Source: Candidatus Cloacimonadales bacterium (GTDB taxonomy: Bacteria; Cloacimonadota; Cloacimonadia; Cloacimonadales; DAONDQ01). Taken from it: a stretch of DNA of 64,000 nucleotides. Below are positions 6,915 through 58,878 of the stretch, piece by piece. Position numbers and translations under genes: made by a program. The notes under the pieces were generated by a model that saw only the letters and a list, made by a program, of their open reading frames with translations, searched no databases and was not told the DNA's origin. Position 1 is the first letter of the stretch; each line of letters begins with the position of its first letter. The stretch covers positions 800,001-864,000 of the forward strand of contig OY759316.1 in NCBI GenBank assembly GCA_963662275.1, given 5' to 3'.

Positions 6915-7577
6915 TTATAATAGCATCTGTTCAGTGATTTCTGGAGCAACCCATGTATATTGCCAATCCTGGTATTTACTCACCAAATTCGCCTTAACAG
7001 GATTTTGCTTAATGTAGGTTACAATTCTAAAGAACTCATTTTCATCTCTAACCAGATGATCATATGATTCACTGTTCCAGAAAGCACCTTCACGGTTCAA
7101 TAACTGGTTAATTTTTCTGGCAGTATATCCCTTCCATGTTTGTGTAATGGAAGGTAGCGTTTTTTTATAATCGATGGGATTTACATACGGCGTGATTAAA
7201 ACATGCACATGATTTGGCATAATACAAAATGCATGTAAGTAGTATTTTTTGTTGTTATTGAAGTGCATAGATTCCTGCACGATATCAGCAATATCCAGTT
7301 GTTTCAACAATTCAGGATACTCTCTTGAAATTCCAACTTGCTGATCAATCCAGTCAAAGACCTTTTTATGATAATTGTAAGCCAGCATTGATTTGTATTC
7401 CTGTGTTAGAGTTTTACATGATTGCTCGAATTCCATTCTCATATCGTATAAGTGGTTTTTAATTAATGGTGATAATTCGAATTTCATGTGCCATGTGATG
7501 AAGATCGGATGGTTTTGTTGAAATAAATGCGGAAGACGGCGCTTGTAGAAGAAAGATACAGATTCCAGGTCTAACAT
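6915..7577 (-). CDS. REP-associated tyrosine transposase (RAYT/TnpA-REP, HUH Y1 family)
   Basis: RRLPH, FITW, HUH motif FCIMPNHVHVL, W...YDHLVRDE and catalytic Tyr in YIKQNPVKA. Flanked by REP arrays; RBS GGAGG. Confidence 0.93.
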   Translation of the reverse strand: MLDLESVSFFYKRRLPHLFQQNHPIFITWHMKFELSPLIKNHLYDMRMEFEQSCKTLTQEYKSMLAYNYHKKVFDWIDQQVGISREYPELLKQLDIADIVQESMHFNNNKKYYLHAFCIMPNHVHVLITPYVNPIDYKKTLPSITQTWKGYTARKINQLLNREGAFWNSESYDHLVRDENEFFRIVTYIKQNPVKANLVSKYQDWQYTWVAPEITEQMLL

Positions 7578-7615
7578 GATTACCTCCGAGGTATTGATTT
7601 TTTTAGATTTAGGAA

Positions 7616-7980
7616 TCGGGATAACATCCCATTGATTATCGGCTTACAAGCCGAGATACGAAACTGAGATACGAACATTCAGGGCTAACAGCCCTTCCAT
7701 TATCGGCTTAACAAGCCGAGATACGAAACTGAGATACGAATATTCAGGGCTAACAGCCCTTCCATTATCGGCTTAACAAGCCGAGATACGAAACTGAGAT
7801 ACGAATATTCAGGGCTAACAGCCCTTCCATTATCGGCTTAACAAACCGAGATACGAAACTGAGATACGAATATTCAGGGCTAACAGCCCTTCCACTATCG
7901 GCTTAACAAGCCGAGATACGAAACTGAGATACGAATATTCAGGGCTGTTAGCCTTGGATTTCTTATCTCAGCTAACAGCC
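7616..7980. repeat. REP array 5' of the RAYT gene: about five 65-bp units, inverted relative to most of the left array
   Basis: Unit TATCGGCTTAACAAGCCGAGATACGAAACTGAGATACGAATATTCAGGGCTAACAGCCCTTCCAT at ~7637, 7701, 7766, 7831 and 7896. Confidence 0.95.
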
Positions 7981-8024
7981 ACTACCTATCAAATTTTATT
8001 TCACCGAGACATGACGTCATTCTT

Positions 8025-11000
8025 CTATTTAACTAATACAACTTTCTGAGAAGATTGGTATTTACCAGCGGTCATGTGATAGAAATACACACCACTGCCG
8101 ACTTCTTTCCCGTATTCATCCTGTCCATTCCAGACAACAGAATGGTGACCAGGATTCCATTCCTTTGACGTAAGGGTTTGTAGTTTACGACCTTTAACAT
8201 CATAAATTGTGATATTCACAAAACTTGCTGAAACAAGATCAAAGGAGATATTCGTTTCAGGATTGAATGGATTCGGGTATGCATGATTGAGTTTGGTTGC
8301 AACTGGTATGACATGCGGTGTATTCGGATCACCTTGATCAAGAACCTGAACCATGACCGGTCCAGTGAAATTACTGATTCCGTTTAAATCGATATTTTCA
8401 AGCCAGTAGTAATAGAAATTAGGAGCTATTACGGTAACATCATCAAAGTTGTATGTATGATGAGTGGATGTATTTGTGCCGGTGATAACATCGGTATTCA
8501 AGGTAATTGCGTCACTTAAGTTAGTATTTTGGGAACGTAAGATATTGAAACCGAGATTATCAGTCTCTGACTCAGTTGCCCATTGCAGAGTAACCAATAA
8601 TAGACTTGTTGATGAAATAGCTGTGAAGGAAGACAATTCAACAGGTAAATCCAAATCACTTCCTGTAAGTGTCCAATCTAAACCACCTTTTGTGGCACCG
8701 TTCAAAGTAGTGACACCAAGAACTGTGACAGTACGATACGTACCATGATCAACTGAATTACATGTGGCAACATAATTCCATAGAGATTCTCCGCTAACAT
8801 GATCACGATTGAACACTTCCATATGTGCGGTAGTAGATAATGTGGATGGATATGAAAATGAAATGTCCACTGTTCCGTTGAATGAACCAGTTGTTTCCCA
8901 TGTATGTGCAATGCTTGTAATGCTTCCAACCTGGTGGGTTGTAGAATCTAAACTTACATTTAATGAAGAAATATTATCTGATCCCTGAAAACCAAAATCT
9001 TTGCCGGACAGAGTCAGTACATGGTTGTTCAAAGCTATACTTCCATTGCTAATGATGAGATTTGTGGCAGCTATACTATTGGGTAATGTCACGATATTCC
9101 CAACACCCGGTTCAATAGTCAGTGTATTCACAACGGATGGTATGGAAACTGGAGAAGTCACTGTTTCAATTACATTTGCAGCATTTCCAACATTTCCTCC
9201 GCTTAAAACACCTGTACCAGTATAGATGAATTGATTGGCATCATTATAACTCCCATTCATGATAATATTATAATTTGCCAGTGAAAGAGAGCCTTGGATA
9301 AAAGTAATGTGTTCATTATTATCAACGGTTAATGAGCGATCAAGAGTAAGAGTGTTTCCACTTTCAAGATTAATCGTTATGTTGCCGAGACCTGTACCGG
9401 AAAGTTCGCTTCCTGTCTGCTTATTTATACCGCTATAAATGACTGAATATGGTGAACTTCCCTGGATTGTACCCGTAATGATCCCATTACTTCGTGTAAT
9501 TGTCGAACCACTACCCATTGTTAATGAAGTACCAGCGTTGAAAATGCCGGATACTAAATTGACGTTCCCGTTTGCACTCATTGTTCTTGCTTCACTCAAT
9601 GAGAATGATATTCCGTTAGATGTATTCACTTCGAGGGTTCCTGTGCATAAATCAGGAAAACCCGTACCGCTTACTTGTGTAGAGGTACCATTATATGAAT
9701 AAATAGCACCGAGATTAAAAATACGGCTCGCAGTCTGAACGCTGCCTGATGCCGTTGGATATATCGTAATACCCGATGTGTTAGCGGTTTGTAGGGTAGC
9801 TCCATTGCTGAGAACAAAACTACCAGCACCATTTACATAATTGGTAGCATTGAAAGTGGCTATTCCATTGATTGTTAAGGAATAAGAACCTACATTAAAA
9901 GATCCGGAAGATACTGAGAATGTTCCGTCAACAGCGCATGAACCTGATAAAGTGACTGTGATTGGATTACTAATAGTTAAATTTTGTACATTTGATGGTA
10001 AGCCAGTCCCTGTAAATTGAGCTGTGTTTCCATTATAGATATAATTAGCTCCAGTACTGAGATTTCTGATGGTTGTTTGCACACTTCCAGTATTTCCACT
10101 CGATGCAATACCGGATGTATTCGCAGTTTGAAGAGTAGCTCCACTGTTCAAGACAAAATTTCCTGATCCTGTTACAAAATTGGTGGCATTAAAGATGGCG
10201 AAACCCATTATAGTAAGAGTACTAGATGCAAGAGATAGATTTCCGGATAGTAATTGGCATGAACCCAAAACAGTACATAAAGATGATAGTGTAACATTCG
10301 TCGCATTATTAATGATCAAATCATGTATCGTATTTGGTAAGCCATTCCCTGTAGATTGAGCTAACGTACCATTATAAATATAATTAGCCTGGTTACTGAG
10401 ATTTCTAATGGTTGTTTGAACACTTCCTGTTGATCCGCTTGAAGTAATACCTACCGTATTAGTCGTCTGAAGTGTAGCACCGGCGGCTAGAATAAAACTG
10501 CCTGTTCCGGTAACAAAGTTTGCTGCGTTGAAAATCACAGTTCCATCAATTGTAAGAGTACGTGGAGAAGTGATAGTAACATTTCCTGCACTAAAAGTAA
10601 GTACTCCTTCAACAGTACAATCACCACCCAAGGTGACACTGACAGATGTGCCTGATCTATTGATTGTGAGATTATTTAATGTAGAAACCGAAGGAAGAGT
10701 AACATTTCCTGTACCAGTCACTGAGATATTAGAAGTTGTGCCACCAACTAAAGTACCGGAACCAGAAACGGAACCACCAATAGTCAATGTATTTGAACCG
10801 ATGGCTAATGTTCTAAATAACTGCAGAGTTCCACTGACAGTATATGATCCTGATAAACCGACTCCGCTAATATTGTTGCTGTTTAGGTTCGTGACTGTTG
10901 CCGGTAATCCACTACCTGTTATTTGCGGAGTAGTGCCTAAATAATAGTAAGTGACATTTGAATTAAATGTCCTGGTTCCCGTTGTTTGTATGCAGCCCGT

Positions 11001-45290: not shown

Positions 45291-46709
45291 ATGAAGAAAA
45301 TAAGCATATTAGTGATTTGTTTATATACAGTATCCCTATTTAGTCAGATACCTCCCAACTTTCCCGTAATTACCTTTTCCGTGAATTCTGAACCTACTCC
45401 CGGTAAGATATACTTATCCAATTTAACGCAAGGTTTCGGTGTTGTTAATACGCCATTTTTAATGATCCTGGACAATACCGGTATTCCAGTCTTTTCACAA
45501 CAGATGACTGCCAGGATGAATTTGGATTTTAAACTGCAACCCAATGGAATGAGAACGTATTTTGATAATTTAAAAGGAAAATTCTATGCCTTGAATGAGG
45601 AATATGAAGTAGTTGATAGTTTTTCTTGTAATGGTTATCAGACAGATGAACATGAATTAGTAATACTGCCCAATGGACATAGCTTTATGCTTGGAAACAC
45701 CCGTCAAGTGATGGATTTATCAGGTGTTGTTCCGGGAGGGAATACTGCTGCTTCAGTACAGGGTATGGTAATCCAGGAACAGGATGAGAATCACTTGGTT
45801 ATATTTGAGTGGAGTACCTTTGATCATTTTGATGTTTCTGATTGTACCACTAATTCATTGCTGCTTGGCCCTGTTGTGGATTATGCGCACTGCAATTCTA
45901 TCGATGTGGATACAGAAGGTAACTTGCTGCTGTCATCCCGTCATATGGATGAGATTACTAAAATAGACCATAGCACTGGAGAAATTATCTGGCGTATGGG
46001 TGGAAGCCGTTCAAAGAACAATATGTTCACTTTTGTCAATGACTCAACATCAACTTTCACTGGATTTTCACATCAGCATTGTGCAAGATGGTTACCCAAT
46101 GGGAACATGCTTGTATTTGATAATGGAAACCTCAAGACACCACCACATTCCCGTGTTGTAGAATATGCAATTGATGAAATCAATTACATTGCTACAAAAG
46201 TATGGGAGTATTCACCGGAACCTGTCATCTACTCAAGTGCTATGGGCAGTTCTCAACGTCTTGCAAACGGGAATACTTTTATTGGCTGGGGCATAAATGC
46301 TCAGCATATCACAGCTTCAGAAGTAACCCCTGCTGGGGAAGTAGTGCAGGCTTTGTCATTTCCTACAGGAGTATCCAGTTACAGGGCATTCAAGGTTATG
46401 GATCCTGTACAAAATCACGACGGGATCACCTTACCTGCCATTGGATTGCATGCATATCCCAATCCCTTTATTAGTTCCACGCAAATCCAATATAAATCTT
46501 CAGATTCAAATCCTATTTCTATCGGAATCTATAACTGCCGCGGACAGCTTGTGAAAACAATGAGTATAACACATACTCTCGTAGGGCGCAATCTGATCCC
46601 CTGGAATGGAAAGGATATCAATTCCAGGAATGTAGCTTCAGGCGTATATCTGATAAGAATCCGGAATGGAGAAAATGAACAGACAATGAAGGTTCTGAAA
46701 CTGAAGTAA
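45291..46709 (+). CDS. Arylsulfotransferase (ASST) family protein with C-terminal sorting domain
   Basis: D.HE, DYAHCNSID, LLSSRH, FSHQH, FDNG and GSSQRL.NGNT.IGWG; YPNPF...SGVY. Confidence 0.88.
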   Translation: MKKISILVICLYTVSLFSQIPPNFPVITFSVNSEPTPGKIYLSNLTQGFGVVNTPFLMILDNTGIPVFSQQMTARMNLDFKLQPNGMRTYFDNLKGKFYALNEEYEVVDSFSCNGYQTDEHELVILPNGHSFMLGNTRQVMDLSGVVPGGNTAASVQGMVIQEQDENHLVIFEWSTFDHFDVSDCTTNSLLLGPVVDYAHCNSIDVDTEGNLLLSSRHMDEITKIDHSTGEIIWRMGGSRSKNNMFTFVNDSTSTFTGFSHQHCARWLPNGNMLVFDNGNLKTPPHSRVVEYAIDEINYIATKVWEYSPEPVIYSSAMGSSQRLANGNTFIGWGINAQHITASEVTPAGEVVQALSFPTGVSSYRAFKVMDPVQNHDGITLPAIGLHAYPNPFISSTQIQYKSSDSNPISIGIYNCRGQLVKTMSITHTLVGRNLIPWNGKDINSRNVASGVYLIRIRNGENEQTMKVLKLK

Positions 46710-46825: not shown

Positions 46826-47689
46826 TTAGTTCTTAACCAGGTCAACCCTGCGATTTTGGGCTCGACCTTCTTCAGTCTTATTATCAGCAACAGGTTTTGA
46901 ACTTCCAAAACCTTGTGCGGTAAGCCTAGTTGCTTCAATACCATTTTTAATGAGTTCATTCTTAACAGACAATGCTCTATCTCCTGAGAGCTTGGCGTTC
47001 ATTTTTACATCCCCTGTGTTATCGGTATGTCCTTGGATAGAGAGTTTAAGAGTAGGGTTGGCTTTCATCATTTGGACAATCTGATCGACAGTGGTAAGAA
47101 AGTCTGATGGAATTTCCACTTTATTGATAGCAAAATTGATATGCAAGGAGACGTATCCATCGGCAACGATTTTATTATAAAGTTCAACACCTGTCATATC
47201 CTGTTTCATAGCTTCCTCTTCAATGATGGATATCCAATAGCGGTCTCCGGCATCCCAGGTTAGAGCTTCGATCCAAAGATTCTTTCCATCTTTCGTTGAG
47301 GCAGTTGCAGTGATAGTATTATAATTGCCACGATTGAATTCGGGGTCATCAATGTTATTCGGGAATGGACCCTGGAATATTATCTTAGCTTTCATAGCCG
47401 TCAGGGCGTTAGTAATATTTCTCCTAAGCTGCAGACCTGAAGTCTTGCCATTACCTTCAGGAAGAGTATATTCGCAATGCCAAAAACGTCCTTCCTTGGT
47501 AACCAGCTTTGTTCCGTCCCAGAATCCGCAAGAATCAAAGTCCCGGTTCCTATCAAAGGAATACACGATAAAGTTGGGCATTTTCTGAAGCCATGGGTTT
47601 TCACCCATCTGTGGAGTATCACTTGTTTCATCTTGGGCGAAGAGAGAAAATGTCAATAGAAGTAACAAACTAAAAAGTATATAGCGCAT
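46826..47689 (-). CDS. OmpA-family peptidoglycan-binding exported protein
   Basis: Signal peptide; INF, IQGHTDNTG...N.KLS..RA and GRAQNRRV. Confidence 0.92.
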   Translation of the reverse strand: MRYILFSLLLLLTFSLFAQDETSDTPQMGENPWLQKMPNFIVYSFDRNRDFDSCGFWDGTKLVTKEGRFWHCEYTLPEGNGKTSGLQLRRNITNALTAMKAKIIFQGPFPNNIDDPEFNRGNYNTITATASTKDGKNLWIEALTWDAGDRYWISIIEEEAMKQDMTGVELYNKIVADGYVSLHINFAINKVEIPSDFLTTVDQIVQMMKANPTLKLSIQGHTDNTGDVKMNAKLSGDRALSVKNELIKNGIEATRLTAQGFGSSKPVADNKTEEGRAQNRRVDLVKN

Positions 47690-48374
47690 ACAGATTCCTC
47701 CTATGTATAATTATTCAAAAAAACTTAGGAAACATATTGATGTCAAGATAATTGCTTGTGGATGTTATTAACTCGATATGATTGTGTACGCAGTAATCGG
47801 ATAGGAGCACAACGAAGTCATGCTAGTCTCAAGGAAGATGAAGAAATTTGAAAAGAAACAAGAAATAAAGAAAACCTGACGAAAATCTACAAAAGTCTAG
47901 ATGATCCCTAGATGATCCCTAGATGATCCCTAGATGAAACCCAACTCAAAACGAAAGTGCGAAGTGCGAAGTTCGAAGTGCGAAGTACGAAATTGTAGTG
48001 TTGTGGAGTAAGATGCCGATCTTACTGTCTTCATTCCTCCCATTTTTAACGGGTGGCACGAAGTGACGGGAGAGCTAGTTCTGTTCTCTTCATCCCCCAT
48101 TGGGAAGGGGGGTAGGGGGGTCTCTTTTCTGGAACTGGCACCTGGCACCTGGCACCTATAACGACGAAGGAGTTATGTCTTGAAACCTTTATTAGTTCCG
48201 TACGAATTGGATGTAGATAACTTGAAACAACAAAGAATCGCAAGTTGCTTTTTAAATTGTCTTATTACGATAAAATACAGGACATAGGTACTTTTTATTT
48301 GACAATATAACATACATCATAAAGCTATTAAAATTCGTTGTTAGGTAGGCATAATCCAGCAAAAAGGAGAGCTG

Positions 48375-48944
48375 ATGTATTGGAAGAAATCACTCATCTA
48401 TTTATTCATACTAGGTATCATGGCTATGCTCATGATTGCAGCACAGGCAGATATCTCTGCAGAACAGAAACTTGTAAAAGTGGGAAAGAACGTGACAATT
48501 CATGGAATTCTTAAGATTCATGAAGGTGTTTATACCTTATTTAGTGATACTGTGAATGTCAATCTCATCCTGGCTCCTGAAGAATATTTGGAGAAACATG
48601 GTGCAGTATTGGCTGATAGAGACACACTAACAGTAACAGGATTTTATTCTGATCTCCAGATGCTTGTTACCACTATCAGGGAAGGTTCAAAAACAACAAT
48701 CATCCGTTGTGATCTTGGCACTCCCTATGTCATAACAAATGATCAGAAAACGTATGCCTCCATTCCTGCAACCTGCATAGGGACAACACTCTGTTCTCAG
48801 AATTGTCCAACCAAGGCGATTACAATGGTGAAAAGCAAAGCTATTACTGATCCCAGTAAATGTATCTCATGTGGGATATGTGAAAGTGGTAATGGCAAGA
48901 ATTTCAAAGGCTGTCCAACAAAATCTGTCCATCAGCTTAAGTAG
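48375..48944 (+). CDS. Exported protein with a MamS/MamX-like OB-fold domain fused to a ferredoxin-type domain
   Basis: Signal peptide; LILAPEEYLEKHG..L...DTLTVTG...IRCDLGTPY; CIGTTLCSQNCP and CISCGIC-x9-CP. The OB-fold assignment is from recalled motif similarity. Confidence 0.7.
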   Translation: MYWKKSLIYLFILGIMAMLMIAAQADISAEQKLVKVGKNVTIHGILKIHEGVYTLFSDTVNVNLILAPEEYLEKHGAVLADRDTLTVTGFYSDLQMLVTTIREGSKTTIIRCDLGTPYVITNDQKTYASIPATCIGTTLCSQNCPTKAITMVKSKAITDPSKCISCGICESGNGKNFKGCPTKSVHQLK

Positions 48945-49027
48945 ATAATTCTTAATTATGTAGACATAATAGATCCAGGACTGTTTTGATGGTCCCTGGC
49001 AATAGTAACGAATATAACTAAAGTGAG

Positions 49028-49279
49028 ATGAATATGAAGAAGAGCTTTCAAATTTTACTACTCCTGATTTTCATATCTTCACTGGTTTTTGCAGCAGTGA
49101 GGTTAAAACCGATCACTGACCCCTATCTTTGTGTCGGCTGCGGTGACTGTGTGAAAATCTGTCCTGTGGATGCCATTCGTATGGTTGACGGAAAATCACT
49201 CATTGACCAGGAAAAATGCATCGACTGTAAATTTTGCATCAAGGGCTGTACGTACAATGCCATAAGGGAGAAGAAATGA
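49028..49279 (+). CDS. Signal-peptide-bearing 2x[4Fe-4S] ferredoxin-like protein
   Basis: MNMKKSFQILLLLIFISSLVFA followed by CVGCGDCVKICP and CIDCKFCIKGC. Confidence 0.88.
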   Translation: MNMKKSFQILLLLIFISSLVFAAVRLKPITDPYLCVGCGDCVKICPVDAIRMVDGKSLIDQEKCIDCKFCIKGCTYNAIREKK

Positions 49280-49530
49280 AGAAGAGAGTACTTGTCATTC
49301 TTTTCATTATTCTCTTAACAGTACTTCTTTTCCTCATTGGCTGTAAAAAAGTATCAAACCCTGAATTTAACATCGATAAACAATCCTGCATGAGCTGTGG
49401 GCGATGTCTGCAAATCTGCCCCTCTGATGCTATCGACTTTGATACCGATGGGAAAGCGCTCATTGATCAGACCAAATGCACGCAATGCGGACGCTGCGTG
49501 AGAGTATGTCCGAAAGATGCGGTGTATTGA
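49276..49530 (+). CDS. Lipoprotein 2x[4Fe-4S] ferredoxin-like protein
   Basis: MKKRVLVILFIILLTVLLFLIG-C lipobox; CMSCGRCLQICP and CTQCGRCVRVCP; 4-bp overlap with the upstream gene. Confidence 0.88.
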   Translation: MKKRVLVILFIILLTVLLFLIGCKKVSNPEFNIDKQSCMSCGRCLQICPSDAIDFDTDGKALIDQTKCTQCGRCVRVCPKDAVY

Positions 49531-50891
49531 TGAAACAGATTATTGTTGGTTTGACTATACTTATACTCAGCACATGCTTACATAGTGTTGTGTATCAATG
49601 GAATGATACTGGTTTTCAGTATCTCATGTCACATAGCTCAAATAATGGAGAAGTAAGTGACAAATCCAGCCGAGAGGATGGCAGCGAGGGTGGAACATCA
49701 AGCTGTACATTTGTCCATGCCGTTGATGTCTCGATAAATAAATTTCTTTCTGCTTTTTTCCAAACTGATTTGAATTGGGAAGATCGCAACCCGAAGAATC
49801 TGATGACCAGCGCTTCGCAACCGGCATCCTTCTATAAAAACTGGCGTGTTTCCGGTGCTTATAATCGTTTCCAGGCTAAAATGGAATACCTGAATGATAA
49901 GCAATATGGAAAGATTCAATATAGAAATCAGTATTTTGCCCCAGGTAAAACAAACAGAAGCTATGTTTTTGTTGTGAATCCAAACTTACCTTGGGATGCA
50001 AAGGAAAGTCTTGCCCATACTCCTACCTTCATCCATGATATTTATACGCAAATGAAATGGGAGACAAGTCAGGGTTCTTTTGAAATTGGAGAAAGAGTTC
50101 GAATTTCGGAATACGACTTGGCAATGTGGGATGATCTGGGAGCTCGTCATCAAATTCCAACTCAGAGGGATGAGAACTTTTTCAATGCGCAAGCGAAAAT
50201 TAACACAGTTCCCTATCTATTTCTTCTTGCGAACGCATATTCCAAACATGACAATACGGATGATTATTTTGATCTCACTCATTATGGGTTTGGTGTTGCT
50301 TTTGATAGAAGATTCGACTTTTTCCATATGCTGGATGCAAGTGTTCAATATGACAGGATGAAATCAGACAAGTATTCCAAAGACCCTATATCAAAAGATG
50401 AAAGAGAGAATTATGTAACCAGTCAACTGCGATATACACATAGGGTGGGAAATAATCTGACAGCCTTCGTTTCATATATCAATCGCTCCGTCTATTCCAA
50501 AGACCAGGAGAGTATGCTGCTTATTTCCAATATGGTTCGACTGCAGGCAAGATACTCTTTCGCAAATGATCTTAATGGGGATTCCTACATCATTATTGGT
50601 GGGAAACTCAGCCAGGAAAACAAGACATCTCTCGTTTTTGGAGAATTCAATTATCCCGTGATTCCAAAGCTGTATGTGAATATGACAGATAAATATTCTC
50701 CAACCTATCTTTATGATAATGCAGGAGTGAAGGAGACAGCTCATGAAAATGAAGTTAGCGTGGGTTTGAACTTCTATTTCACACCTTGGCAACTGGTTTA
50801 TGTTTCTGATACTTTCAGCCTGATAGGGAAAAAAGGGTTGGTTCCTTCCTCTCAGCAGTTGATATCCTTCGGTACGAAATTGGTCTTTTAA
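49530..50891 (+). CDS. Putative outer-membrane beta-barrel protein
   Basis: Signal peptide, many aromatic-rich amphipathic strands and C-terminal ISFGTKLVF ending in Phe; TGATG coupling to the upstream gene. Confidence 0.7.
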   Translation: MKQIIVGLTILILSTCLHSVVYQWNDTGFQYLMSHSSNNGEVSDKSSREDGSEGGTSSCTFVHAVDVSINKFLSAFFQTDLNWEDRNPKNLMTSASQPASFYKNWRVSGAYNRFQAKMEYLNDKQYGKIQYRNQYFAPGKTNRSYVFVVNPNLPWDAKESLAHTPTFIHDIYTQMKWETSQGSFEIGERVRISEYDLAMWDDLGARHQIPTQRDENFFNAQAKINTVPYLFLLANAYSKHDNTDDYFDLTHYGFGVAFDRRFDFFHMLDASVQYDRMKSDKYSKDPISKDERENYVTSQLRYTHRVGNNLTAFVSYINRSVYSKDQESMLLISNMVRLQARYSFANDLNGDSYIIIGGKLSQENKTSLVFGEFNYPVIPKLYVNMTDKYSPTYLYDNAGVKETAHENEVSVGLNFYFTPWQLVYVSDTFSLIGKKGLVPSSQQLISFGTKLVF

Positions 50892-50903
50892 ACTTGGAGT
50901 AGG

Positions 50904-51896
50904 ATGTATTTTAAGACACTGATAGAGGGATTTTTACTTGGATTGTCCACAGGGACGATCTGTCTTTTAACATGCACACCCATCTATTTACCTTATTTAG
51001 CAACTGAAAAAAGGCAACTGAAAGAGAATTTCTGGAAAGTCATGGAAATCTCTTTCGGACGTTTCTTTTCCTATCTTGCTTTTGGTGCTTTGGCTGGATG
51101 GCTGGGAGCGCAAATTGCGGATATTGACCGTACCCTTTACACAGGAATTGCCTATATACTGCTTTCCGGCTTTTTAGTCCTGACTAGTGTCAGAACTTCT
51201 AAACAGGAAAAACACTGCCCCATTCCCTTTTATCTGAAATTAACAAAAAGCGCATTTCTAATGGGTGTTCTGACAGGGATAAATTTTTGCCCGTCTTTCC
51301 TGATTGCCGTTTCCAAGGCGGTTGATTTGGCTGGAGTGTTCAGTGGTATTATGTTGTTCATGGGTTTCTTTGTTGGAACGACTCTATTCCTGCTTCCTCT
51401 CGCTTTCACGGGAATGCTGGCTTCCATTGGGAAAATGAAATACTACGCCCGTATCGCAGCAGTTCTTATCGCAGTTTGGTTTGTGGGTCAAGGTGGCTGG
51501 AATATTTACAGTCATTTCCACCAGGTTGAAGTGAATAAACATTCAAGAATACTCAATCCTGCCGATCCGGAGACGAAGATACTGTTAGTGGCTAATCCAG
51601 CGGATAGTATCTATTTTAATGTTCTCGCCGATTCGCTTTTTCTCTTTAAAACCATGAATTTCTCATATGTTCAAATGGACAAAATTGATTTAACAGAGAT
51701 TGACAAGTATGGGAAGAATTCTCTTATTATCATGGATAATGACTTATACAGTAAAGAACTTGACCCAAAATTCCAAACAAGAGATTTGTTTCTTGTGGAA
51801 AATGAATACTCCATTGAGTCAATCATGAACTTTCTGCGAACACGGAATATCAAGGTTGGACAGAACCAGGGTGCGCGCTGGGATTTTAAAAAGTAG
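50904..51896 (+). CDS. DsbD_2/TauE-SafE-like polytopic membrane protein with a C-terminal soluble domain
   Basis: GFLLGLSTG..C...C.P, GRFFSY..FG...G.LG, G..TG.NFCP and FF.GT pattern; about 6-7 TM helices. Confidence 0.78.
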   Translation: MYFKTLIEGFLLGLSTGTICLLTCTPIYLPYLATEKRQLKENFWKVMEISFGRFFSYLAFGALAGWLGAQIADIDRTLYTGIAYILLSGFLVLTSVRTSKQEKHCPIPFYLKLTKSAFLMGVLTGINFCPSFLIAVSKAVDLAGVFSGIMLFMGFFVGTTLFLLPLAFTGMLASIGKMKYYARIAAVLIAVWFVGQGGWNIYSHFHQVEVNKHSRILNPADPETKILLVANPADSIYFNVLADSLFLFKTMNFSYVQMDKIDLTEIDKYGKNSLIIMDNDLYSKELDPKFQTRDLFLVENEYSIESIMNFLRTRNIKVGQNQGARWDFKK

Positions 51897-51920
51897 TGCA
51901 CGACCTCCGGGCGTGCAATT

Positions 51921-52010
51921 AGAAGGCAGCCAGGGATGTCAGAAGGCTGCCAGGGATGTCAGCCCCTACGGTCAACATGAAGAAGGCTGCCAGGGATGTC
52001 AGCCCCTACG
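51921..52010. repeat. GTAG-type REP repeats (two full, one partial)
   Basis: The minus strand reads GTAGG-GGCTGAC-ATCCCT-GGCAGCC twice, an imperfect hairpin. Confidence 0.75.
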
Positions 52011-52037
52011 TGTAAGATTCATACAACAAGGACTTAT

Positions 52038-52718
52038 ATGAATATCATCCAAATCAAAGATCTGAGAAAAGAATACGACATGGGGAAAGTATCAGTTATT
52101 GCTTTGAACGGTGTGGATATGAACATTGAGCAGGGGGAATTCGTAGCGATTATGGGTCCTTCTGGTTCGGGTAAAAGTACTTTAATGCACATTATCGGTT
52201 GCCTGGATAGTCCTACGACTGGTACCTATTATTTGGACAGCAAGGAAGTCAGTAAGCTTTCAAAATCAGAACTGGCAGCAGTCAGAAATAAAGAGATCGG
52301 GTTTGTTTTCCAGACCTTCAATTTGCTTCCACATCTGAATATTATGTTAAATGTCGAACTTCCTCTCATGTATGCTGGATTCAATCGGGTGAAAAGAAAA
52401 ACACGTGCCCGTGAGGTCTTGGAATCCGTGGGACTGAGTGATCGATTGAACCACAAGCCTTCAGAGCTTTCTGGAGGACAGAGACAGCGTGTTGCTATTG
52501 CACGAGCGATTGTTAATCATCCATCGATCATTCTTGCTGATGAACCTACAGGAAACTTGGACAGTCAATCCGGTACCGATATTTTAAGCATATTTTCTGA
52601 TTTGCATAAAGAAGGACATACGATTATCATGGTTACACACGATCTTGCAGTCTCACAATCCGCAGACCGGGTCATCAAGATCATTGATGGAAGGATAGTC
52701 AATGGCGATCTCGCTTAA
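52038..52718 (+). CDS. ABC transporter ATP-binding protein (MacB/LolD-like)
   Basis: GPSGSGKST, LSGGQRQRVAIARA, ILADEPTGNLD and MVTHD. Confidence 0.95.
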   Translation: MNIIQIKDLRKEYDMGKVSVIALNGVDMNIEQGEFVAIMGPSGSGKSTLMHIIGCLDSPTTGTYYLDSKEVSKLSKSELAAVRNKEIGFVFQTFNLLPHLNIMLNVELPLMYAGFNRVKRKTRAREVLESVGLSDRLNHKPSELSGGQRQRVAIARAIVNHPSIILADEPTGNLDSQSGTDILSIFSDLHKEGHTIIMVTHDLAVSQSADRVIKIIDGRIVNGDLA

Positions 52719-53931
52719 GGAATCCATTATCGTTGGATTCTCAGATTTCTGGTCTCGTAAGATCAGGAGCCTGGTCACCATCACCGGGATTATTTTGGGT
52801 ACGATGTCTATCATCGTTGTTTTAGCCATCGTGAACGGGGTTAATAAAAGCACTTTGGCTTGGATGTCTGAACGAGGAGGACTGACTAAAATTGAAGTAG
52901 GAAGGAATTGGCAGTATGATGAACAAGGTGTGGGGAAAAGATATTTTACGTTACGTGAGTTAAATTTCATTCATTCTAAAATTCCTGAAGTTATTGCCTT
53001 TAATCCTCAGATGGAAAATTATGGCAAATATAGAAACGGTAGTAAAACATATAGTGCACAAATTATTGGGGTTTTACCCGATTATGCCATAGCAGAGGAA
53101 TGGACAACAGACCAGGGGAGATTTATCTCGAAGTATGATGAAGACTTGAGTAATAATGTTGTTGTCCTGGGTACGGCAACGAAAAAAGCACTTTTTGGAA
53201 GTAGAAACGCCTTAGGTGAATATATTTCTATGGGAAATCTTCAATTGCGAGTGATCGGGATCATGAAAGAAAAGATATTTAAGCAGCCTGGAGGGGGCTT
53301 TGGGGGTGGAAATATGCTGGAATACCTGAATTACCAGACATTTATTCCCTTGAGTACGATGATTCACAAAATCACAGGCCAGGATCAATTCGAAAGTTTC
53401 AGCGTAAAAGTACCTGATCCTGAATCTGCAACAGAGATTCGACAGAAACTGGAAGCATTACTTCTTAATTTACGTAATGGAAAACCCATATTTGAAGTGC
53501 AATCTGCCCAGGAACAAATGGAATCCATGAAAAAGAACAGTTTCCTTTTCCAGGTCATTTTCTTCCTGGTAGCCTCAATATCACTCATGGTTGGTGGTAT
53601 TGTGATTATGAATATCATGCTTGCTACGATCCAGGAAAGAACACGTGAGATAGGCATCAGGCTTGCTGTTGGCGCTCGAAGGATAGATATTTTCCTGCAA
53701 TTCCTTATTCAGACAGTTTTAATCACAACTATCGGTGGTATTCTGGGAATTGCCATCGGCTTTGCTATCCTGAAATATGTAGGTAAATTCCTGAATACTG
53801 TAGTCGCAGCTTCAGGAACAATGGTCTTGGTTGCTTTAATCGTGTCAGCAGGTGTTGGCTTGATATTTGGTATCTTTCCAGCCATACGTGCAAGTAATAT
53901 GGATCCTGTTGAGGCTTTACGAAATGAATAA
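52702..53931 (+). CDS. MacB/FtsX-type ABC permease
   Basis: RSLVT..GI..G, periplasmic domain, GGIVIMNIML..I.ERTREIGIR.AVGA and PA.RAS.MDPVEALR. Confidence 0.93.
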   Translation: MAISLKESIIVGFSDFWSRKIRSLVTITGIILGTMSIIVVLAIVNGVNKSTLAWMSERGGLTKIEVGRNWQYDEQGVGKRYFTLRELNFIHSKIPEVIAFNPQMENYGKYRNGSKTYSAQIIGVLPDYAIAEEWTTDQGRFISKYDEDLSNNVVVLGTATKKALFGSRNALGEYISMGNLQLRVIGIMKEKIFKQPGGGFGGGNMLEYLNYQTFIPLSTMIHKITGQDQFESFSVKVPDPESATEIRQKLEALLLNLRNGKPIFEVQSAQEQMESMKKNSFLFQVIFFLVASISLMVGGIVIMNIMLATIQERTREIGIRLAVGARRIDIFLQFLIQTVLITTIGGILGIAIGFAILKYVGKFLNTVVAASGTMVLVALIVSAGVGLIFGIFPAIRASNMDPVEALRNE

Positions 53932-56631: not shown

Positions 56632-56725
56632 GGAGATGTGTCCGAGCTGGTTGAAGGAGCACGATTGGAAATCGTGTATATGCGCAAAACGTGTATCTAG
56701 GGTTCGAACCCCTACATCTCCGCCA
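56632..56725 (+). tRNA. tRNA-Ser(GGA)
   Basis: Acceptor stem GGAGATG/CATCTCC, discriminator G and encoded CCA; anticodon arm CACGA-TTGGAAA-TCGTG; long variable arm; GGTTCGAAC T-loop. Confidence 0.96.
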
Positions 56726-56766: not shown

Positions 56767-58878
56767 GTTTGCCCAGAATGTTTTCTGCGCCGATGGACTG
56801 GAAGAAGTCCTGACACCTAATCAGCGGGAAGTCAACTCGAGGTCAAGGGCGTTGCCGGCAACGGCAGGGTCTGAAGTAAGACGCAGAGGGAATATGGAAC
56901 ATAGCGCAAGTGAACTGATGTTGGTTTGTAGAGTGGGTAACCTTTCAAAAAGTGGGAAAGCCCGAAAGCTGGATATCTCTACAGATTATGACAGATGGCT
57001 TCATATTCAGGCAGGAGAACTTAACTGGGGAAGCCTGTTATTGTCTACTTAAGGTAGTCGTTTCGATCAAGTTGAAAGATAAGTGAGAAGCCAAGCGATA
57101 GCAGGTGGCAGATGATTCCGTAGTAGTGACAAACCTTTTGCCTATGAAAGCTGGTGACAGTCTGGAGGATAAAACAAAAGGGACAGCATTCACGGTAATG
57201 CTGAGGGCTGTATCTCAAAAGGATACAGTTCATGCGAAGGGATGAAGATAATCCAAAGGGATGATTTGAAATGTGGAAAGTAATCGATGAAAAGTGAGAA
57301 ACGAAGGAAGAAGCTGAAATGCTTCGAGGCTCGGTTTGACAGTGGTGACGAACTTCCTTTCAACCCCGACCGCACGAGACTGATTAGTCAGGCAAAGCTC
57401 AAAAGCAGCAGTTCTGTCATATTGCTATATGCTAAAGAAGGCAGGACACCCTGATGAAGAGACATTCATCCTCGATGAACACCGCAAAACGAATCACAAT
57501 GAGACAGGAAATGTCATGAGAAAATACTACAGCTTAATCGACAAGGTGTACTCCCTGCCCAATTTGTATGCTTCCTTTACTTCGGTGAAACGGAATAAAG
57601 GTGCATCAGGCATTGATGGGCAGAGTATAGAAAACTTTGACGAACAACTGGCAGTGAACATCAACCAACTTCACGACGAACTAATGGCAGGTACTTACGA
57701 GCCATCACCTGTAAGGCGGTTAGAGATACCCAAACCCAATGGCAAAATGAGACCGCTTGGCATTCCAACGGTAAGAGACAGAGTAGTGCAGCAGGCAATC
57801 CTGAATATCATACAACCGATATTTGAGCCTGACTTCCATCCGTCCAGTTATGGTTACAGACCGCATCGGTCTTGCCAACATGCCGTAGCGAAAGCTCAGC
57901 GTTTTCTTACAGCGTACAATTTGGGTTATGCTGTGAATATGGACTTATCCAAGTGTTTTGACACCTTAGACCACGAACTGATATTGAGCCGTCTGAACAG
58001 GAAAATCAGTGATGGTACATTGCTGAGATTAATCAGCCGTTTTCTCAAATCAGGAGTAATGGTCGATGGGGATTTCAAAGCTACTGAGATAGGCAGTCCG
58101 CAAGGTGGAGTAATCTCACCCTTATTGATGAATATCTATCTGGATGAGTTCGACCAGAGGATGAAACAGCGGAACATCAGGATAGTACGTTATGCTGATG
58201 ACATCCTGATATTTGCTCCGACCAGGAAAAAGGCAGAGCAATATCAAAGGATCGCGACAGCGATACTTGAAGAACTTCGCTTGCAAGTCAATCTGGAAAA
58301 GACTCATATCAGCAGTGTCGAAACAGGAATCAGCTATCTGGGATTTTTCATCAAAGGAAGCCGTGTCTGCATCGACAAGGAGCGTTTGAAACGTTTCAAG
58401 GATAAGATACGTAAGCTTACTCCCCGCAACAGTGGCATCCCAATATCCATGACGATAGGAAGCCTGAATCCTGTACTAAGGGGATGGGGTAACTATTTCA
58501 AAGTTGCGAGTTGTAAAAGCATCTTTGCGAGCCTGATGGAATGGATACGAAGGAGGCTTCGAATGAAGAAGATGCGTGAATGGAAGAGCTGGAAAGCATT
58601 CCATAAAGCAATGCGCAGACAAGGCTTCAAGGGAGAATGCCCAAAACTATCTATGACCAGATGGCGTAACGCTCAGAGCTTCCACTTATGCTTTGCCTTG
58701 CCGAACAAGTGGTTTGAAGAAATGAAGTTGTTTGATTTGACATCACTTCAGACAAGTGTTTTATTTAATTACTACGAGTAATTACAAGGATTATCAGGAG
58801 CCGTGTACGAGACCCGTACGCACGGTTCTGTGAGAGGGATGATGCTGGAATTAATTAGCCAGCATCACCCTACTCGAT
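56767..58878 (+). mobile_element. Group II intron, IIC-like (terminator-targeting)
   Basis: 5' end GTTTGCCCAGAATG directly after the terminator T-run; domain V GAGCCGTGTACGAGACCCGTACGCACGGTTC at ~58798-58828; domain VI hairpin ending CCCTACTCGAT; encodes an RT. Confidence 0.9.
57516..58781 (+). CDS. ltrA: Group II intron reverse transcriptase/maturase without endonuclease domain
   Basis: V..NKGA.GIDG, IPKPNGKMRPLGIPTVRDRVVQQA, SYGYRP, DLSKCFD, GSPQGGVISPLL, RYADD and LRGWGNYF; no HNH. Likely ATG 57516 (frame open from 57429). Confidence 0.96.
   Translation: MRKYYSLIDKVYSLPNLYASFTSVKRNKGASGIDGQSIENFDEQLAVNINQLHDELMAGTYEPSPVRRLEIPKPNGKMRPLGIPTVRDRVVQQAILNIIQPIFEPDFHPSSYGYRPHRSCQHAVAKAQRFLTAYNLGYAVNMDLSKCFDTLDHELILSRLNRKISDGTLLRLISRFLKSGVMVDGDFKATEIGSPQGGVISPLLMNIYLDEFDQRMKQRNIRIVRYADDILIFAPTRKKAEQYQRIATAILEELRLQVNLEKTHISSVETGISYLGFFIKGSRVCIDKERLKRFKDKIRKLTPRNSGIPISMTIGSLNPVLRGWGNYFKVASCKSIFASLMEWIRRRLRMKKMREWKSWKAFHKAMRRQGFKGECPKLSMTRWRNAQSFHLCFALPNKWFEEMKLFDLTSLQTSVLFNYYE

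Follow-up and report, generated by a model that had tools for sequence, protein, structure and literature searches.

The question raised by the locus at 48375-51896 is why ferredoxin-like proteins with export leaders should be encoded together with an outer-membrane barrel and a Cys-containing membrane protein, and whether they may carry electrons through the cell envelope. The locus lies in the window, a stretch of 64,000 nucleotides (positions 800,001 to 864,000 of contig OY759316.1) from the genome of a Candidatus Cloacimonadales bacterium, to which the gene coordinates below refer. A preliminary description of this DNA had proposed an Fe-S-based conduit from the inner to the outer membrane or, alternatively, a Cys-based metal uptake or trafficking module. 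Trans-outer-membrane conduits of the porin-cytochrome type include MtrCAB of Shewanella, PioAB/MtoAB, and Pcc of Geobacter. No description of an operon combining exported ferredoxins with a barrel was found in the literature.

Gene organization and conservation

Five genes, designated A to E, constitute the cluster.

A, 48375-48944, + strand: 189 aa, exported by way of a Sec-type leader, with a ferredoxin-like domain of seven Cys at the C terminus
B, 49028-49279, + strand: 83 aa, Sec-type leader and canonical 2x[4Fe-4S] ferredoxin domain
C, 49276-49530, + strand: 84 aa, lipoprotein ferredoxin, starting at an ATG inside the ORF listed from 49234
D, 49530-50891, + strand: 453 aa, lineage-specific predicted outer-membrane barrel, starting at an ATG inside the ORF listed from 49476
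E, 50904-51896, + strand: 330 aa, inner-membrane protein of the DsbD_2 family with six transmembrane helices (TM)

The co-orientation and tight coupling described previously are both seen at these coordinates. B and C overlap in an ATGA at 49276-49279, base 49530 is common to the stop codon of C and the start codon of D, and E begins after a 12-base gap downstream of D. Translational coupling links B, C, and D, which are also inherited together. The cluster encodes no terminal reductase or oxidase and has no defined electron donor, and no NapH-like Fer4_5 gene was detected within 48375-51896 by ORF and Pfam analysis.

Conservation in other genomes, on which the preliminary description had let its proposal depend, was observed for B-C-D across Cloacimonadota and in one Fibrobacterota metagenome-assembled genome (MAG), in which a signal-peptide ferredoxin, B, C, D, and E occur together. 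B and C stand directly upstream of D in all 20 loci fetched around D homologues; downstream of D are E in 17, a contig end in two, and Fur and FeoB in one. Among 66 E-bearing loci with at least 2,200 nt of upstream sequence, 50 have the order B, C, an ORF in the position of D, and E. Since the same order recurs in dozens of genomes, the arrangement is not due to chance. E is present in 83 of the 201 phylum genomes, and the two largest sampled genera contain D matches in 12/19 (g3) and 8/20 (g6) genomes and E matches in 0/19 and 0/20, respectively, which indicates that E is a frequent but dispensable addition to B-C-D.

The 66 related loci also contain further modules. Homologues of A (about 180 aa) occur in 27 of them, often immediately downstream of a NapH-like Fer4_5 membrane protein. 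A homologue of A at L016:2587-3153 scored 57.7 bits. The NapH-like protein is found in 13 loci, where it adjoins A-like exported ferredoxins, and a DPD-like flavo-Fe-S oxidoreductase is found in 6. Accessory ferredoxins of relatives carry the type IX secretion system (T9SS) sorting domain Por_Secre_tail (39.1, 28.7, and 36.1 bits; cut-off, 27), and lipoproteins of 600 to 1,050 aa have the architecture Fer4-FN3 repeats-Fer4. T9SS-tailed ferredoxins and FN3-repeat ferredoxin lipoproteins are present in 14 and 30 loci, respectively. Neither type of surface ferredoxin was seen in the cluster of the present genome, and Pfam searches detected no Por_Secre_tail domain in A, B, or C. An unrelated ASST protein of the window (45291-46709) carries this sorting domain.

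Ferredoxin-like proteins A, B, and C and their probable export

The preliminary description had attributed CxxCxxCxxxC(P) ferredoxin motifs to three of the proteins, which holds for B and C, with two strict motifs each, and fails for A. B contains CxxCxxCxxxCP and CxxCxxCxxxCT and matches Pfam Fer4 with 50.7 bits, above the gathering cut-off, and its eight Cys residues are all invariant in 27/27 family members. C contains two strict CxxCxxCxxxC motifs and matches Fer4_7 with 57.2 bits, also above the gathering cut-off. Seven of its cluster Cys never vary, and two members have Asp in place of the eighth, which is the classic CxxDxxC variant. The motifs are considered genuine Fe-S motifs because of this variant and of the complete invariance of the B Cys. 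On sequence grounds, B and C are canonical 2x[4Fe-4S] ferredoxin domains and predicted Fe-S binders. A consists of an approximately 100-aa N-terminal domain of unknown fold followed by a ferredoxin-like domain with seven Cys (C134x5C140xxxC144P and C163xxC166xxC169x10C180P), which are predicted to form one 4-Cys and one 3-Cys cluster site. With its variant spacing (Cx5CxxxCP plus CxxCxxCx10CP) and scores barely below the gathering cut-offs (Fer4_7, 26.8 versus 27; Fer4, 20.6 versus 21.1), A was rejected as a canonical dicluster ferredoxin.

The hydrophobic N-terminal leaders noted previously are seen on A, B, C, and D, and the single lipobox is that of C (LIG-C23), which precedes the 2x[4Fe-4S] domain and has an invariant Cys in 28/28 family members. 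The n-regions of the leaders have net charges of +2.2 to +2.4 (mean for B, +2.4), compared with +0.6 and -0.4 over the next 12 residues. The ferredoxin domains are very probably extracytoplasmic, as had been proposed, because the lipobox of C is invariant, the leaders follow the positive-inside rule, and relatives encode T9SS-tailed and FN3-lipoprotein paralogues.

Export of folded Fe-S proteins by the twin-arginine (Tat) pathway was considered and rejected. RR occurs within the n-region in 1/27 B proteins and 3/28 C proteins, and the h-regions of both families are very hydrophobic, which is not a twin-arginine signature. A search whose control was positive in 11/14 genomes detected no TatC in the present genome, a single contig that is 99.97% complete, and TatC was detected in 1 of 81 phylum genomes, each at least 90% complete. 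With no TatC found, export must be of the Sec type and, we infer, the clusters would be loaded outside the cytoplasm, after export. We know of no machinery that loads Fe-S clusters there. Canonical ferredoxins exported unfolded by Sec would need unaided cluster assembly, which would be unprecedented.

The outer-membrane barrel and its predicted complex with C

D has an N-terminal signal peptide and a C-terminal Phe, and its AlphaFold2 model (pLDDT, 86.2; pTM, 0.81) is a 20-strand beta-barrel, which agrees with the earlier assignment of 49530-50891 and indicates that D is a 20-strand outer-membrane beta-barrel, as modelled. D has no Pfam or NCBIfam match, and a search space of 1.84 billion proteins contains just 59 cluster representatives of its family. 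Foldseek searches of the PDB returned only generic barrel matches (TMq, 0.4 to 0.55), among which MtrB (6r2q_B) ranked 26th with a TMq of 0.42.

The modelling of the barrel with a ferredoxin, as suggested earlier, was carried out for D with C, together with two 4Fe-4S ligands, and placed C inside D. The ipSAE scores, which express the model's own confidence, were 0.60, 0.70, and 0.65, compared with 0.01 for the best of three controls. The mark of the tool is reached by 116/157 solved complexes and 2/215 mismatched pairs, counts that apply only roughly to D-C, which was modelled from our own alignments and with a riding ligand. The runs share at least 65% of contacts, and the partner pLDDT is at least 74. 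The contacts of D with C are spread over at least 12 strands and follow an i/i+2 periodicity; among the contacting residues are the near-invariant R301, R337, and K359. Conservation is higher in the contact columns than in the remainder of D (0.473 versus 0.349), a value reached by 1 of 10,000 permutations, and the comparison with the opposite-face neighbours (0.421 versus 0.490) shows a modest conservation gap. Lumen-facing residues of D may also owe their conservation to other causes. The prediction seats the C ferredoxin domain within the barrel of D, where it touches residues that are conserved, hydrophilic, and oriented towards the lumen.

Membrane protein E and the redox context of the genome

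E matches PF13386 (DsbD_2) with 67.1 bits (cut-off, 24.9; E value, 2.6e-18), and its AlphaFold2 model (pLDDT, 87.6) consists of a domain of six TM helices followed by a C-terminal alpha/beta domain (residues 215 to 330) with weak likeness to receiver/flavodoxin-like folds (VIA-align Z, about 7.0 to 7.5). The CxxxC and CP motifs reported for this polytopic protein correspond to C20xxxC24 in TM1, C105-P in a positively charged loop, and C129-P at the break of TM4. An alignment of 51 homologues shows the four Cys to be invariant, as are C24-x-P26 in helix 1 and C129-P130 at the helix 4 break. Homologues of E are named TauE/SafE-type exporters in public annotations; DsbD_2 is the only Pfam family matched at an E value of ≤0.1, and the sulfite exporter assignment was rejected. 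The only NCBIfam match is ArsG (E value, 0.011), far below its cut-off.

E resembles CcdA/DsbD in its PF13386 match, in the Cys-x-Pro of TM1, and in the Cys-Pro at the TM4 break, but its invariant Cys number four instead of two, and an extra C-terminal domain is present. CcdA/DsbD proteins also differ in context, as the neighbours of E are ferredoxins and a barrel in a genome with neither c-type cytochromes nor a Ccm/Ccs gene. None of the 5576 ORFs (≥80 aa) of this genome has three or more CxxCH motifs, and no match to the cytochrome c maturation (Ccm/Ccs) family PF01578 was found in the genome by a search whose control was positive in 9/14. These sequence data indicate that the host has no c-type cytochromes, and E therefore cannot serve cytochrome c maturation.

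The best structural matches of the modelled membrane part of E are RnfA (8ahx_A; Z, 8.4; rmsd, 5.3; 145 aligned) and NqrE (7xk3_E; Z, 8.1; rmsd, 5.9; 147 aligned), a weak fold likeness, since VIA-align itself notes that generic helical matches also reach a Z of about 8. The available text of one study describes NqrD-NqrE and RnfA-RnfE as six-helix subunits with an intramembranous [2Fe-2S] cluster (PMC10643135). E shares with them Cys in TM1 and in a broken TM4, but it is a single gene instead of a D/E pair and has no profile similarity to them (hhalign probability, 0.1 versus the genome's own RnfA and RnfE), and an assignment to NqrDE/RnfAE (PF02508) by profile was rejected.

A NapGH-type quinol dehydrogenase consists of a membrane Fer4_5 protein and a periplasmic polyferredoxin. 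The present genome has one such pair of a NapH-like gene and a leader-bearing double ferredoxin elsewhere (genome positions 2254491-2255980), similar to the pairs in related loci. The cluster itself differs from NapGH in having no NapH-like gene, nitrate reductase, or other terminal enzyme, in that its exported proteins lack a twin-arginine signal and the genome yielded no TatC match, and in that an outer-membrane barrel belongs to the system.

A proposed haem-free conduit and its alternatives

We assign a probability of roughly 45% to the reading that the operon is a haem-free, envelope-spanning iron-sulfur electron-transfer system, or porin-ferredoxin module. It shares with porin-cytochrome conduits an exported redox protein, a dedicated outer-membrane barrel, surface lipoprotein redox proteins (in relatives), and, by prediction, a redox protein inside the barrel lumen. 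It differs in that [4Fe-4S]-type motifs replace haem, the barrel would house a lipoprotein of 61 residues, Sec export leaves the loading of cofactors to be explained, and D has 20 strands versus 26, without an apparent sequence relation. As noted previously, none of A to E contains CxxCH, and an MtrAB-type multihaem c-type cytochrome in the barrel was rejected.

In such a system, apo-ferredoxins would be exported by Sec and gain [4Fe-4S] clusters outside the cytoplasm, perhaps spontaneously from the Fe(II) and sulfide of sulfidic anoxic habitats. With C plugged in D, two clusters would be carried across the outer membrane in the manner of MtrA within MtrB, and B, plus A where present, would be the periplasmic electron shuttle. 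In relatives, T9SS-anchored ferredoxins and FN3-spaced ferredoxin lipoproteins may lengthen the chain on the cell surface. The inner membrane may feed in electrons by way of interchangeable modules, E here or a NapH-like polyferredoxin elsewhere. E might relay reducing equivalents through its four membrane-embedded Cys in a CcdA-like thiol relay, hold a Cys-ligated intramembrane cluster as in NqrDE/RnfAE, or keep exported Cys reduced for cluster insertion. Of the conduit proposed originally, the porin-plus-carrier layout is supported by the controlled prediction of C in D, but a single inner-to-outer-membrane chain through E is not general, because E is absent from the large D-bearing genera.

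The alternative that an Fe-S or metal uptake or trafficking relay is encoded appears unlikely. The ferredoxin-like domains would capture FeS(aq) clusters, iron, or a thiophilic metal, which would pass through D, with C as a movable plug, to the periplasmic carriers A and B and then across the inner membrane through E as a Cys-lined transporter of the LysE superfamily, with a logic like that of the Isd haem relay or ferredoxin import by Fus. The transporter superfamily and public exporter annotation of E are consistent with this route, as are its four invariant Cys in or near the membrane; however, B-C-D occurs without E in many genomes, and therefore no dedicated inner-membrane importer is conserved. 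Metal-related neighbours exist, namely Fur and FeoB right after D in the place of E at locus L016 and a CopA-like HMA P-type ATPase just upstream of the cluster in one genus, but each is confined to one lineage. Many paralogous binding modules at differing envelope depths would fit a cofactor relay, and apo-domains of Tat-less cells in sulfidic Fe(II) would gain clusters anyway. Against a relay stand the NapH-like and DPD-like redox proteins that co-occur in related loci, and canonical dicluster ferredoxin folds bury their clusters and are not known to pass them on. As far as the available text of two studies describes it, Fus of Pectobacterium imports a foreign plant [2Fe-2S] ferredoxin via a TonB-dependent receptor and degrades it (PMC6042079, PMC6793856). 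The two systems would share the entry of a ferredoxin into or through an outer-membrane barrel and a link to iron supply, whereas the ferredoxins here are the organism's own, bear export signals, and are translated together with the barrel.

Less probable still is another envelope redox or maintenance function that involves no long-range electron export, either an outer-membrane channel gated by the redox potential that its ferredoxin plug senses or a periplasmic thiol/redox-stress system in which a CcdA-like E exports reductant to Cys-rich clients. Gated transporters also have a plug-in-barrel build, the cluster lacks a terminal enzyme, and E has CcdA/DsbD-type Cys in TM1 and TM4, yet the genome has no cytochrome c clients; such a function would leave unexplained why ferredoxin domains are displayed at the surface through FN3 stalks or T9SS anchors, why dicluster modules are so numerous, and why NapH-like polyferredoxins are linked to the system. 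That the helices are N-out anchors of an ordinary cytoplasmic-face redox complex to which D is functionally unrelated is very improbable, for although all small dicluster ferredoxins known to us are cytoplasmic or Tat-exported and no Tat pathway was found, the invariant lipobox Cys of C, the positive-inside leaders, the same-operon paralogues with T9SS sorting domains and FN3 repeats, the translational coupling of B-C-D, and a D-C prediction that passes its controls all argue against it.

Reviews of Cloacimonetes, in their available text, note few hydrogenase and formate dehydrogenase genes and speculate that direct interspecies electron transfer (DIET) occurs via pili, not cytochromes (PMC8892533, PMC7382037). 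A porin-ferredoxin module would probably let a fermentative or syntrophic organism without cytochromes dispose of low-potential electrons (or take them up); electron transfer and its physiological acceptor are what we infer here, and minerals, humics, or partner methanogens are possible targets. Such a module would be an undescribed, haem-free way to move electrons (or iron-sulfur) across the cell envelope.

Organization of the gene cluster

Five co-oriented ORFs, here called A to E, lie at positions 48375 to 51896, in exact agreement with the preliminary description.

Genes of the cluster (all on the plus strand)
48375-48944, +, A, ferredoxin-like protein, 189 aa
49028-49279, +, B, ferredoxin, 83 aa
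49276-49530, +, C, ferredoxin, 84 aa
49530-50891, +, D, outer-membrane barrel, 453 aa
50904-51896, +, E, DsbD_2 membrane protein, 330 aa

The tight coupling of the last four genes was likewise found: B and C overlap by ATGA, C and D have one base in common, and 12 bases separate D from E. Ferredoxin motifs had been claimed for three proteins, which holds for B and C, each with two strict CxxCxxCxxxC motifs and a strong Fer4 Pfam score (50.7 and 57.2 bits, respectively), but not for A, a seven-Cys variant with the pattern Cx5CxxxCP and CxxCxxCx10CP and Pfam scores slightly below the cut-offs. Homologues of A elsewhere have ferredoxin domains with full Pfam scores. The N-terminal domain of A yielded no usable match in the Atlas. 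A motif check of the five proteins found no CxxCH in any of them, as had been stated.

The intergenic gap 5' of A is 685 bp long and contains four short perfect or near-perfect tandem arrays.

Tandem arrays upstream of A
47897-47937, CTAGATGATCC, 3.7 copies
47955-47991, AAGTGCG, 5.3 copies
48102-48121, GGGTAGGG, 2.5 copies
48135-48157, CTGGCAC, 3.3 copies

A sigma-54 promoter built from the TGGCAC units of the last array was rejected, since no TTGC (-12) element occurs at the correct spacing. Promoter and terminator counts over 47600-52200 were not above those of shuffled sequences, and the scan does not give the operon boundaries. Rfam searches of the whole window gave no match in or close to the cluster; farther downstream, a tRNA (56632-56722) precedes a group II intron (D1-D4 at 56852-57019 and the domain V/VI model at 58796-58878).

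Conservation across genomes

Among 201 genomes sampled from the phylum, 80 had D by a single-sequence search (59 of the 151 of high quality, and 25 of 61 genera), which is an undercount because divergent forms of D exist; ORFs at the D position of other loci proved to be remote D homologues (hhalign 97% and 67%). Homologues of B and C sat directly upstream of D in every one of the 20 loci retrieved around it. The gene after D was E in 17 of them, two ended with the contig, and in one genome Fur and FeoB lie directly 3' of D (locus L016, 7210-9931). A profile search found E in 83 of the 201 genomes (61 of 151 high-quality genomes and 36 of 61 genera), and the sets of genomes with D and with E differ.

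Occurrence of D and E in two genera and one family of the phylum sample
Genus g3: D in 12/19, E in 0/19
Genus g6: D in 8/20, E in 0/20
Family f2: D in 0/8 with this single-sequence query, E in 7/8

Ten loci from genera lacking E retained B in nine, C in nine and D (by HMM) in seven, with E in none. Five of these loci have the order LemA-like, B, C, D, MscS-like, the LemA and MscS assignments having been checked with Pfam in one locus (L118).

When the E profile was run against 185,579 species genomes, it retrieved 97 relatives, nearly all labelled Cloacimonadota; the other labels belonged to two Fibrobacterota contigs and two short contigs. Of the 97, 80 were kept as loci, 66 of which have E with at least 2200 nt upstream of it. 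C and D (or an ORF at the D position) were present in 53 of the 66 loci, and B-C-D-E in 50. Several of the remaining 16 lack B-C-D but carry E together with a NapH-like and an A-like gene. A 50-kb Fibrobacterota contig (L112) holds a full set consisting of a signal-peptide ferredoxin, B, C, D, E and one more lipoprotein, which bears three Fer4 motifs; a SelB-like elongation factor, recognized from its N-terminal sequence only, lies 3' of this cluster (7143-9056). The neighbourhood is thus conserved as B-C-D, in Cloacimonadota and in this Fibrobacterota contig, but the five-gene unit of the preliminary description is not general with respect to E, which is missing from genera g3 and g6, where D occurs. 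Since the D and E sets differ and the E-less loci keep B-C-D, the conserved core is B-C-D, with E, A and the NapH-like protein as alternatives or additions at the inner membrane and in the periplasm.

Location of the ferredoxin domains and cluster loading

The ferredoxin domains are very probably extracytoplasmic, a location well supported in silico. The lipobox reported for C has an invariant Cys in 28 of 28 sequences. The mean net charge of the leader n-region is +2.4 in B and +2.2 in C, falling to +0.6 and -0.4, respectively, in the 12 residues past the hydrophobic stretch, and D, an outer-membrane barrel, is translationally coupled to C. In relatives, ferredoxins of the same operon (about 180 aa) combine a leader, 2x[4Fe-4S] and a T9SS sorting domain, with Por_Secre_tail scores of 39.1, 28.7 and 36.1 bits in three of them (cut-off, 27), and lipoproteins of 600 to 1050 aa (lipobox ..SC[ST]D..) have the arrangement Fer4, FN3 repeats, Fer4. 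The T9SS-tailed type occurs in 14 of 66 loci, as counted with a small HMM built from three Pfam-verified tails, and the FN3 lipoprotein type in 30 of 66, within 5-kb flanks that end inside many operons. Lipobox, leader charges, T9SS and FN3 relatives and C-D coupling together make a cytoplasmic location unlikely. The hydrophobic stretches of the B and C leaders are very hydrophobic (mean Kyte-Doolittle value, 3.2 to 3.4), and the leader contains RR in 1 of 27 B proteins and 3 of 28 C proteins. An arylsulfotransferase (ASST) family protein at 45291-46709 also has a Por_Secre_tail (38.9 bits), so the genome encodes T9SS cargo.

A TatC search gave no match in the complete genome of the organism (99.97% complete, single contig); its control was found in 11 of 14 genomes. 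Among genomes of the phylum that are at least 90% complete, TatC was found in 1 of 81. Export must therefore be of the Sec type, and any Fe-S cluster would be inserted outside the cytoplasm, for which we know of no machinery. The motifs of B and C look like genuine cluster sites: all eight cluster Cys of B are invariant and the sole substitution of a cluster Cys in C is the classic CxxDxxC. Speculatively, the clusters might be loaded from environmental Fe(II) and sulfide. A 371-aa DUF362 protein encoded elsewhere in the genome (391389-392504) has a Sec-type signal peptide and contains a 2x[4Fe-4S] insertion; it is apparently another exported Fe-S protein in this genome where TatC was not found.

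A new barrel family with a ferredoxin predicted in its lumen

D had been described as a beta-barrel, and the AlphaFold2 model, computed from a 51-sequence alignment, has 20 beta-strands behind an N-terminal helix that corresponds to the leader (pLDDT 86.2; pTM 0.81). Turns of two to four residues alternate with long loops in the usual outer-membrane pattern, and the C-terminal residue is Phe. D has no match in Pfam or NCBIfam, and a search of 1.84 billion proteins matched it to only 59 cluster representatives (E ≤ 0.001). A D-profile search for homologous proteins found only seven, all unnamed or "hypothetical", and Foldseek returned generic barrels only (OccK/OprD and TonB-dependent receptor barrels, with MtrB at rank 26) at TMq 0.4 to 0.55. 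From these few matches, the lack of a Pfam or NCBIfam family and the generic Foldseek hits, D is a new barrel family.

The complex of barrel and ferredoxin, a check that had been proposed for this cluster, was predicted for D residues 19 to 453 (alignment A1), mature C (residues 24 to 84; alignment A3) and two 4Fe-4S clusters, and gave an ipSAE of 0.65 (0.60, 0.70 and 0.65) against 0.01 for the best of three controls. Of 157 solved complexes, 116 attain the score mark, as do 2 of 215 mismatched pairs; these counts are only rough for D-C because its own alignments were used and the ligand was included. Contact agreement between runs was at least 65%, with partner pLDDT at least 74. The confident contacts involve at least 12 strands with i/i+2 periodicity, the loop-6 helices (281-292) and almost the whole surface of C, a pattern that places C, by prediction, in the lumen of D. 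By strand parity, most contacts would fall midway along the barrel and in its outer half, and some would lie at a distance of four to eight residues from the rim on the periplasmic side. They take in three of the seven near-invariant residues of D (R301, R337 and K359). Conservation in the contact columns of D is 0.473 (n=42), compared with 0.349 in the rest (n=325), a difference reached by 1 of 10,000 permutations; compared with opposite-face neighbours the gap is modest (0.490 versus 0.421). We know of no solved ferredoxin-in-barrel complex, so a D-C score obtained by memorization is unlikely.

The membrane protein E

E matches DsbD_2 (PF13386) with 67.1 bits and has approximately 237 homologues, all of about 320 to 335 aa and from Cloacimonadota, with the source annotation "sulfite exporter TauE/SafE". 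The name of the Pfam family refers to cytochrome c biogenesis. In the complete genome, none of 5576 ORFs of at least 80 aa reaches three CxxCH motifs, and the single ORF with two is helicase-like; the cytochrome c assembly protein PF01578 was not found, the control being found in 9 of 14 genomes. E is thus without cytochrome clients there.

Four Cys of E are invariant in 51 sequences. Two of them, C20 and C24, belong to helix 1 (CLxTCxPIYLPY); C105 lies in a loop with positive charge, and C129 in NFCPSF. In the AlphaFold2 model (pLDDT 87.6), six long helices, the fourth of them interrupted at C129, precede an alpha/beta domain (215-330). Loops 1, 3 and 5 read as cytoplasmic by the positive-inside rule, which would place both termini, and hence the C-terminal domain, on the periplasmic side. 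Structural comparison of the membrane part ranks RnfA and NqrE first (Z scores of 8.4 and 8.1, within the generic range of about 8 for helical proteins), subunits described in PMC10643135 as holding an intramembranous [2Fe-2S] cluster. Homology of E to Nqr/Rnf subunits was abandoned on an hhalign probability of 0.1 against RnfA and RnfE of the same genome, and the weak fold likeness alone was kept, as an analogy and not membership. The C-terminal domain bears a weak resemblance to receiver/flavodoxin-like folds over about 90 residues (Z score about 7.0 to 7.5). Foldseek of E against the PDB gave nothing at E ≤ 0.001, a PDB sequence-profile search with the E alignment gave chance-level rows only, and an Atlas search returned the Cloacimonadota cluster of E itself and then generic DsbD_2 clusters at about 0.8.

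A MacB/LolD-like ABC ATPase (240-aa ORF) and an FtsX-type permease (409 aa) lie 3' of E at 51996-53931. The ATPase starts 10 bases after E in a sister genome (L013), and the downstream genes differ in other genera. This transporter was left out of the system, as it abuts E in the present genus only.

Possible functions: electron conduit or metal relay

On sequence and models, an electron conduit of porin and ferredoxins is plausible and the most economical reading, to which we assign a probability of roughly 0.45. The two clusters of C inside D would span the outer membrane, B and A would act as periplasmic carriers, and the surface ferredoxins of relatives would act outside the cell. Electrons might enter at the inner membrane through E and/or the NapH-like protein; E could relay them via its membrane Cys or, alternatively, keep exported Cys reduced for cluster loading. 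Redox neighbours support the conduit: 13 of 66 loci carry a NapH-like Fer4_5 protein, and 6 of 66 encode a DPD-like flavo-Fe-S oxidoreductase (Fer4_20, Pyr_redox_2, DHO_dh, Fer4_21).

Elsewhere in the complete genome (2254491-2255980), a NapH-like Fer4_5 membrane protein (264 aa) is directly followed by a 239-aa double ferredoxin with a hydrophobic leader and two A-type domains (CxxCxxCx9-10CP); the pair is probably the inner-membrane partner module found within the cluster in relatives. In one genus, a cytoplasmic 830-aa DPD-like oxidoreductase heads the operon (L019, 8740-11232, minus strand; L023, 16-4832; L041, 2478-4973), preceded by an ORF of about 770 aa whose N-terminal sequence resembles a xanthine-dehydrogenase-type molybdoenzyme; the two form a possible electron-input module.

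The main rival holds that the system relays FeS or metals. E belongs to a transporter superfamily, Fur-FeoB adjoins the cluster in one genome and CopA does so in one genus, but ferredoxin clusters are buried and non-labile, and no inner-membrane importer is conserved. The CopA-like HMA P-type ATPase lies upstream of the cluster (L018, 1618-4092).

Returning to the conduit, its fuller form is more tentative still: Cloacimonadota and related Fibrobacterota may possess a haem-free outer-membrane wire, in which a dicluster ferredoxin is plugged in a 20-strand barrel, fed by periplasmic ferredoxins and extended at the surface by T9SS/FN3 proteins, with clusters assembled outside the cytoplasm for want of Tat.

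Under either reading the system is undescribed and would run counter to Tat as the sole exit for Fe-S proteins. Searches of the main texts of non-subscription literature found no description of exported, secreted or lipoprotein ferredoxins or of ferredoxin conduits, nor of DsbD_2 with a ferredoxin and an outer-membrane protein, and a term search showed that two genomics papers on Cloacimonadota do not mention such a system. To our knowledge, all known outer-membrane electron conduits use multihaem cytochromes and all known extracytoplasmic Fe-S proteins are exported folded by Tat. Sec-, lipoprotein- and T9SS-exported ferredoxins with their own barrel would overturn both generalizations, and would break the rule that Fe-S proteins must fold before their exit from the cytoplasm. 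Reviews report few hydrogenases and formate dehydrogenases in Cloacimonadota, and their passages on direct interspecies electron transfer speculate about it without naming a conduit (PMC8892533, PMC7382037). If the system is a metal relay, it would be a first candidate for environmental FeS uptake. If it is a conduit, it would give cytochrome-less syntrophs a molecular means of passing electrons to the outside or to other species, and would provide a testable mechanism for electron disposal by the abundant uncultured fermenters and syntrophs of anaerobic digesters.
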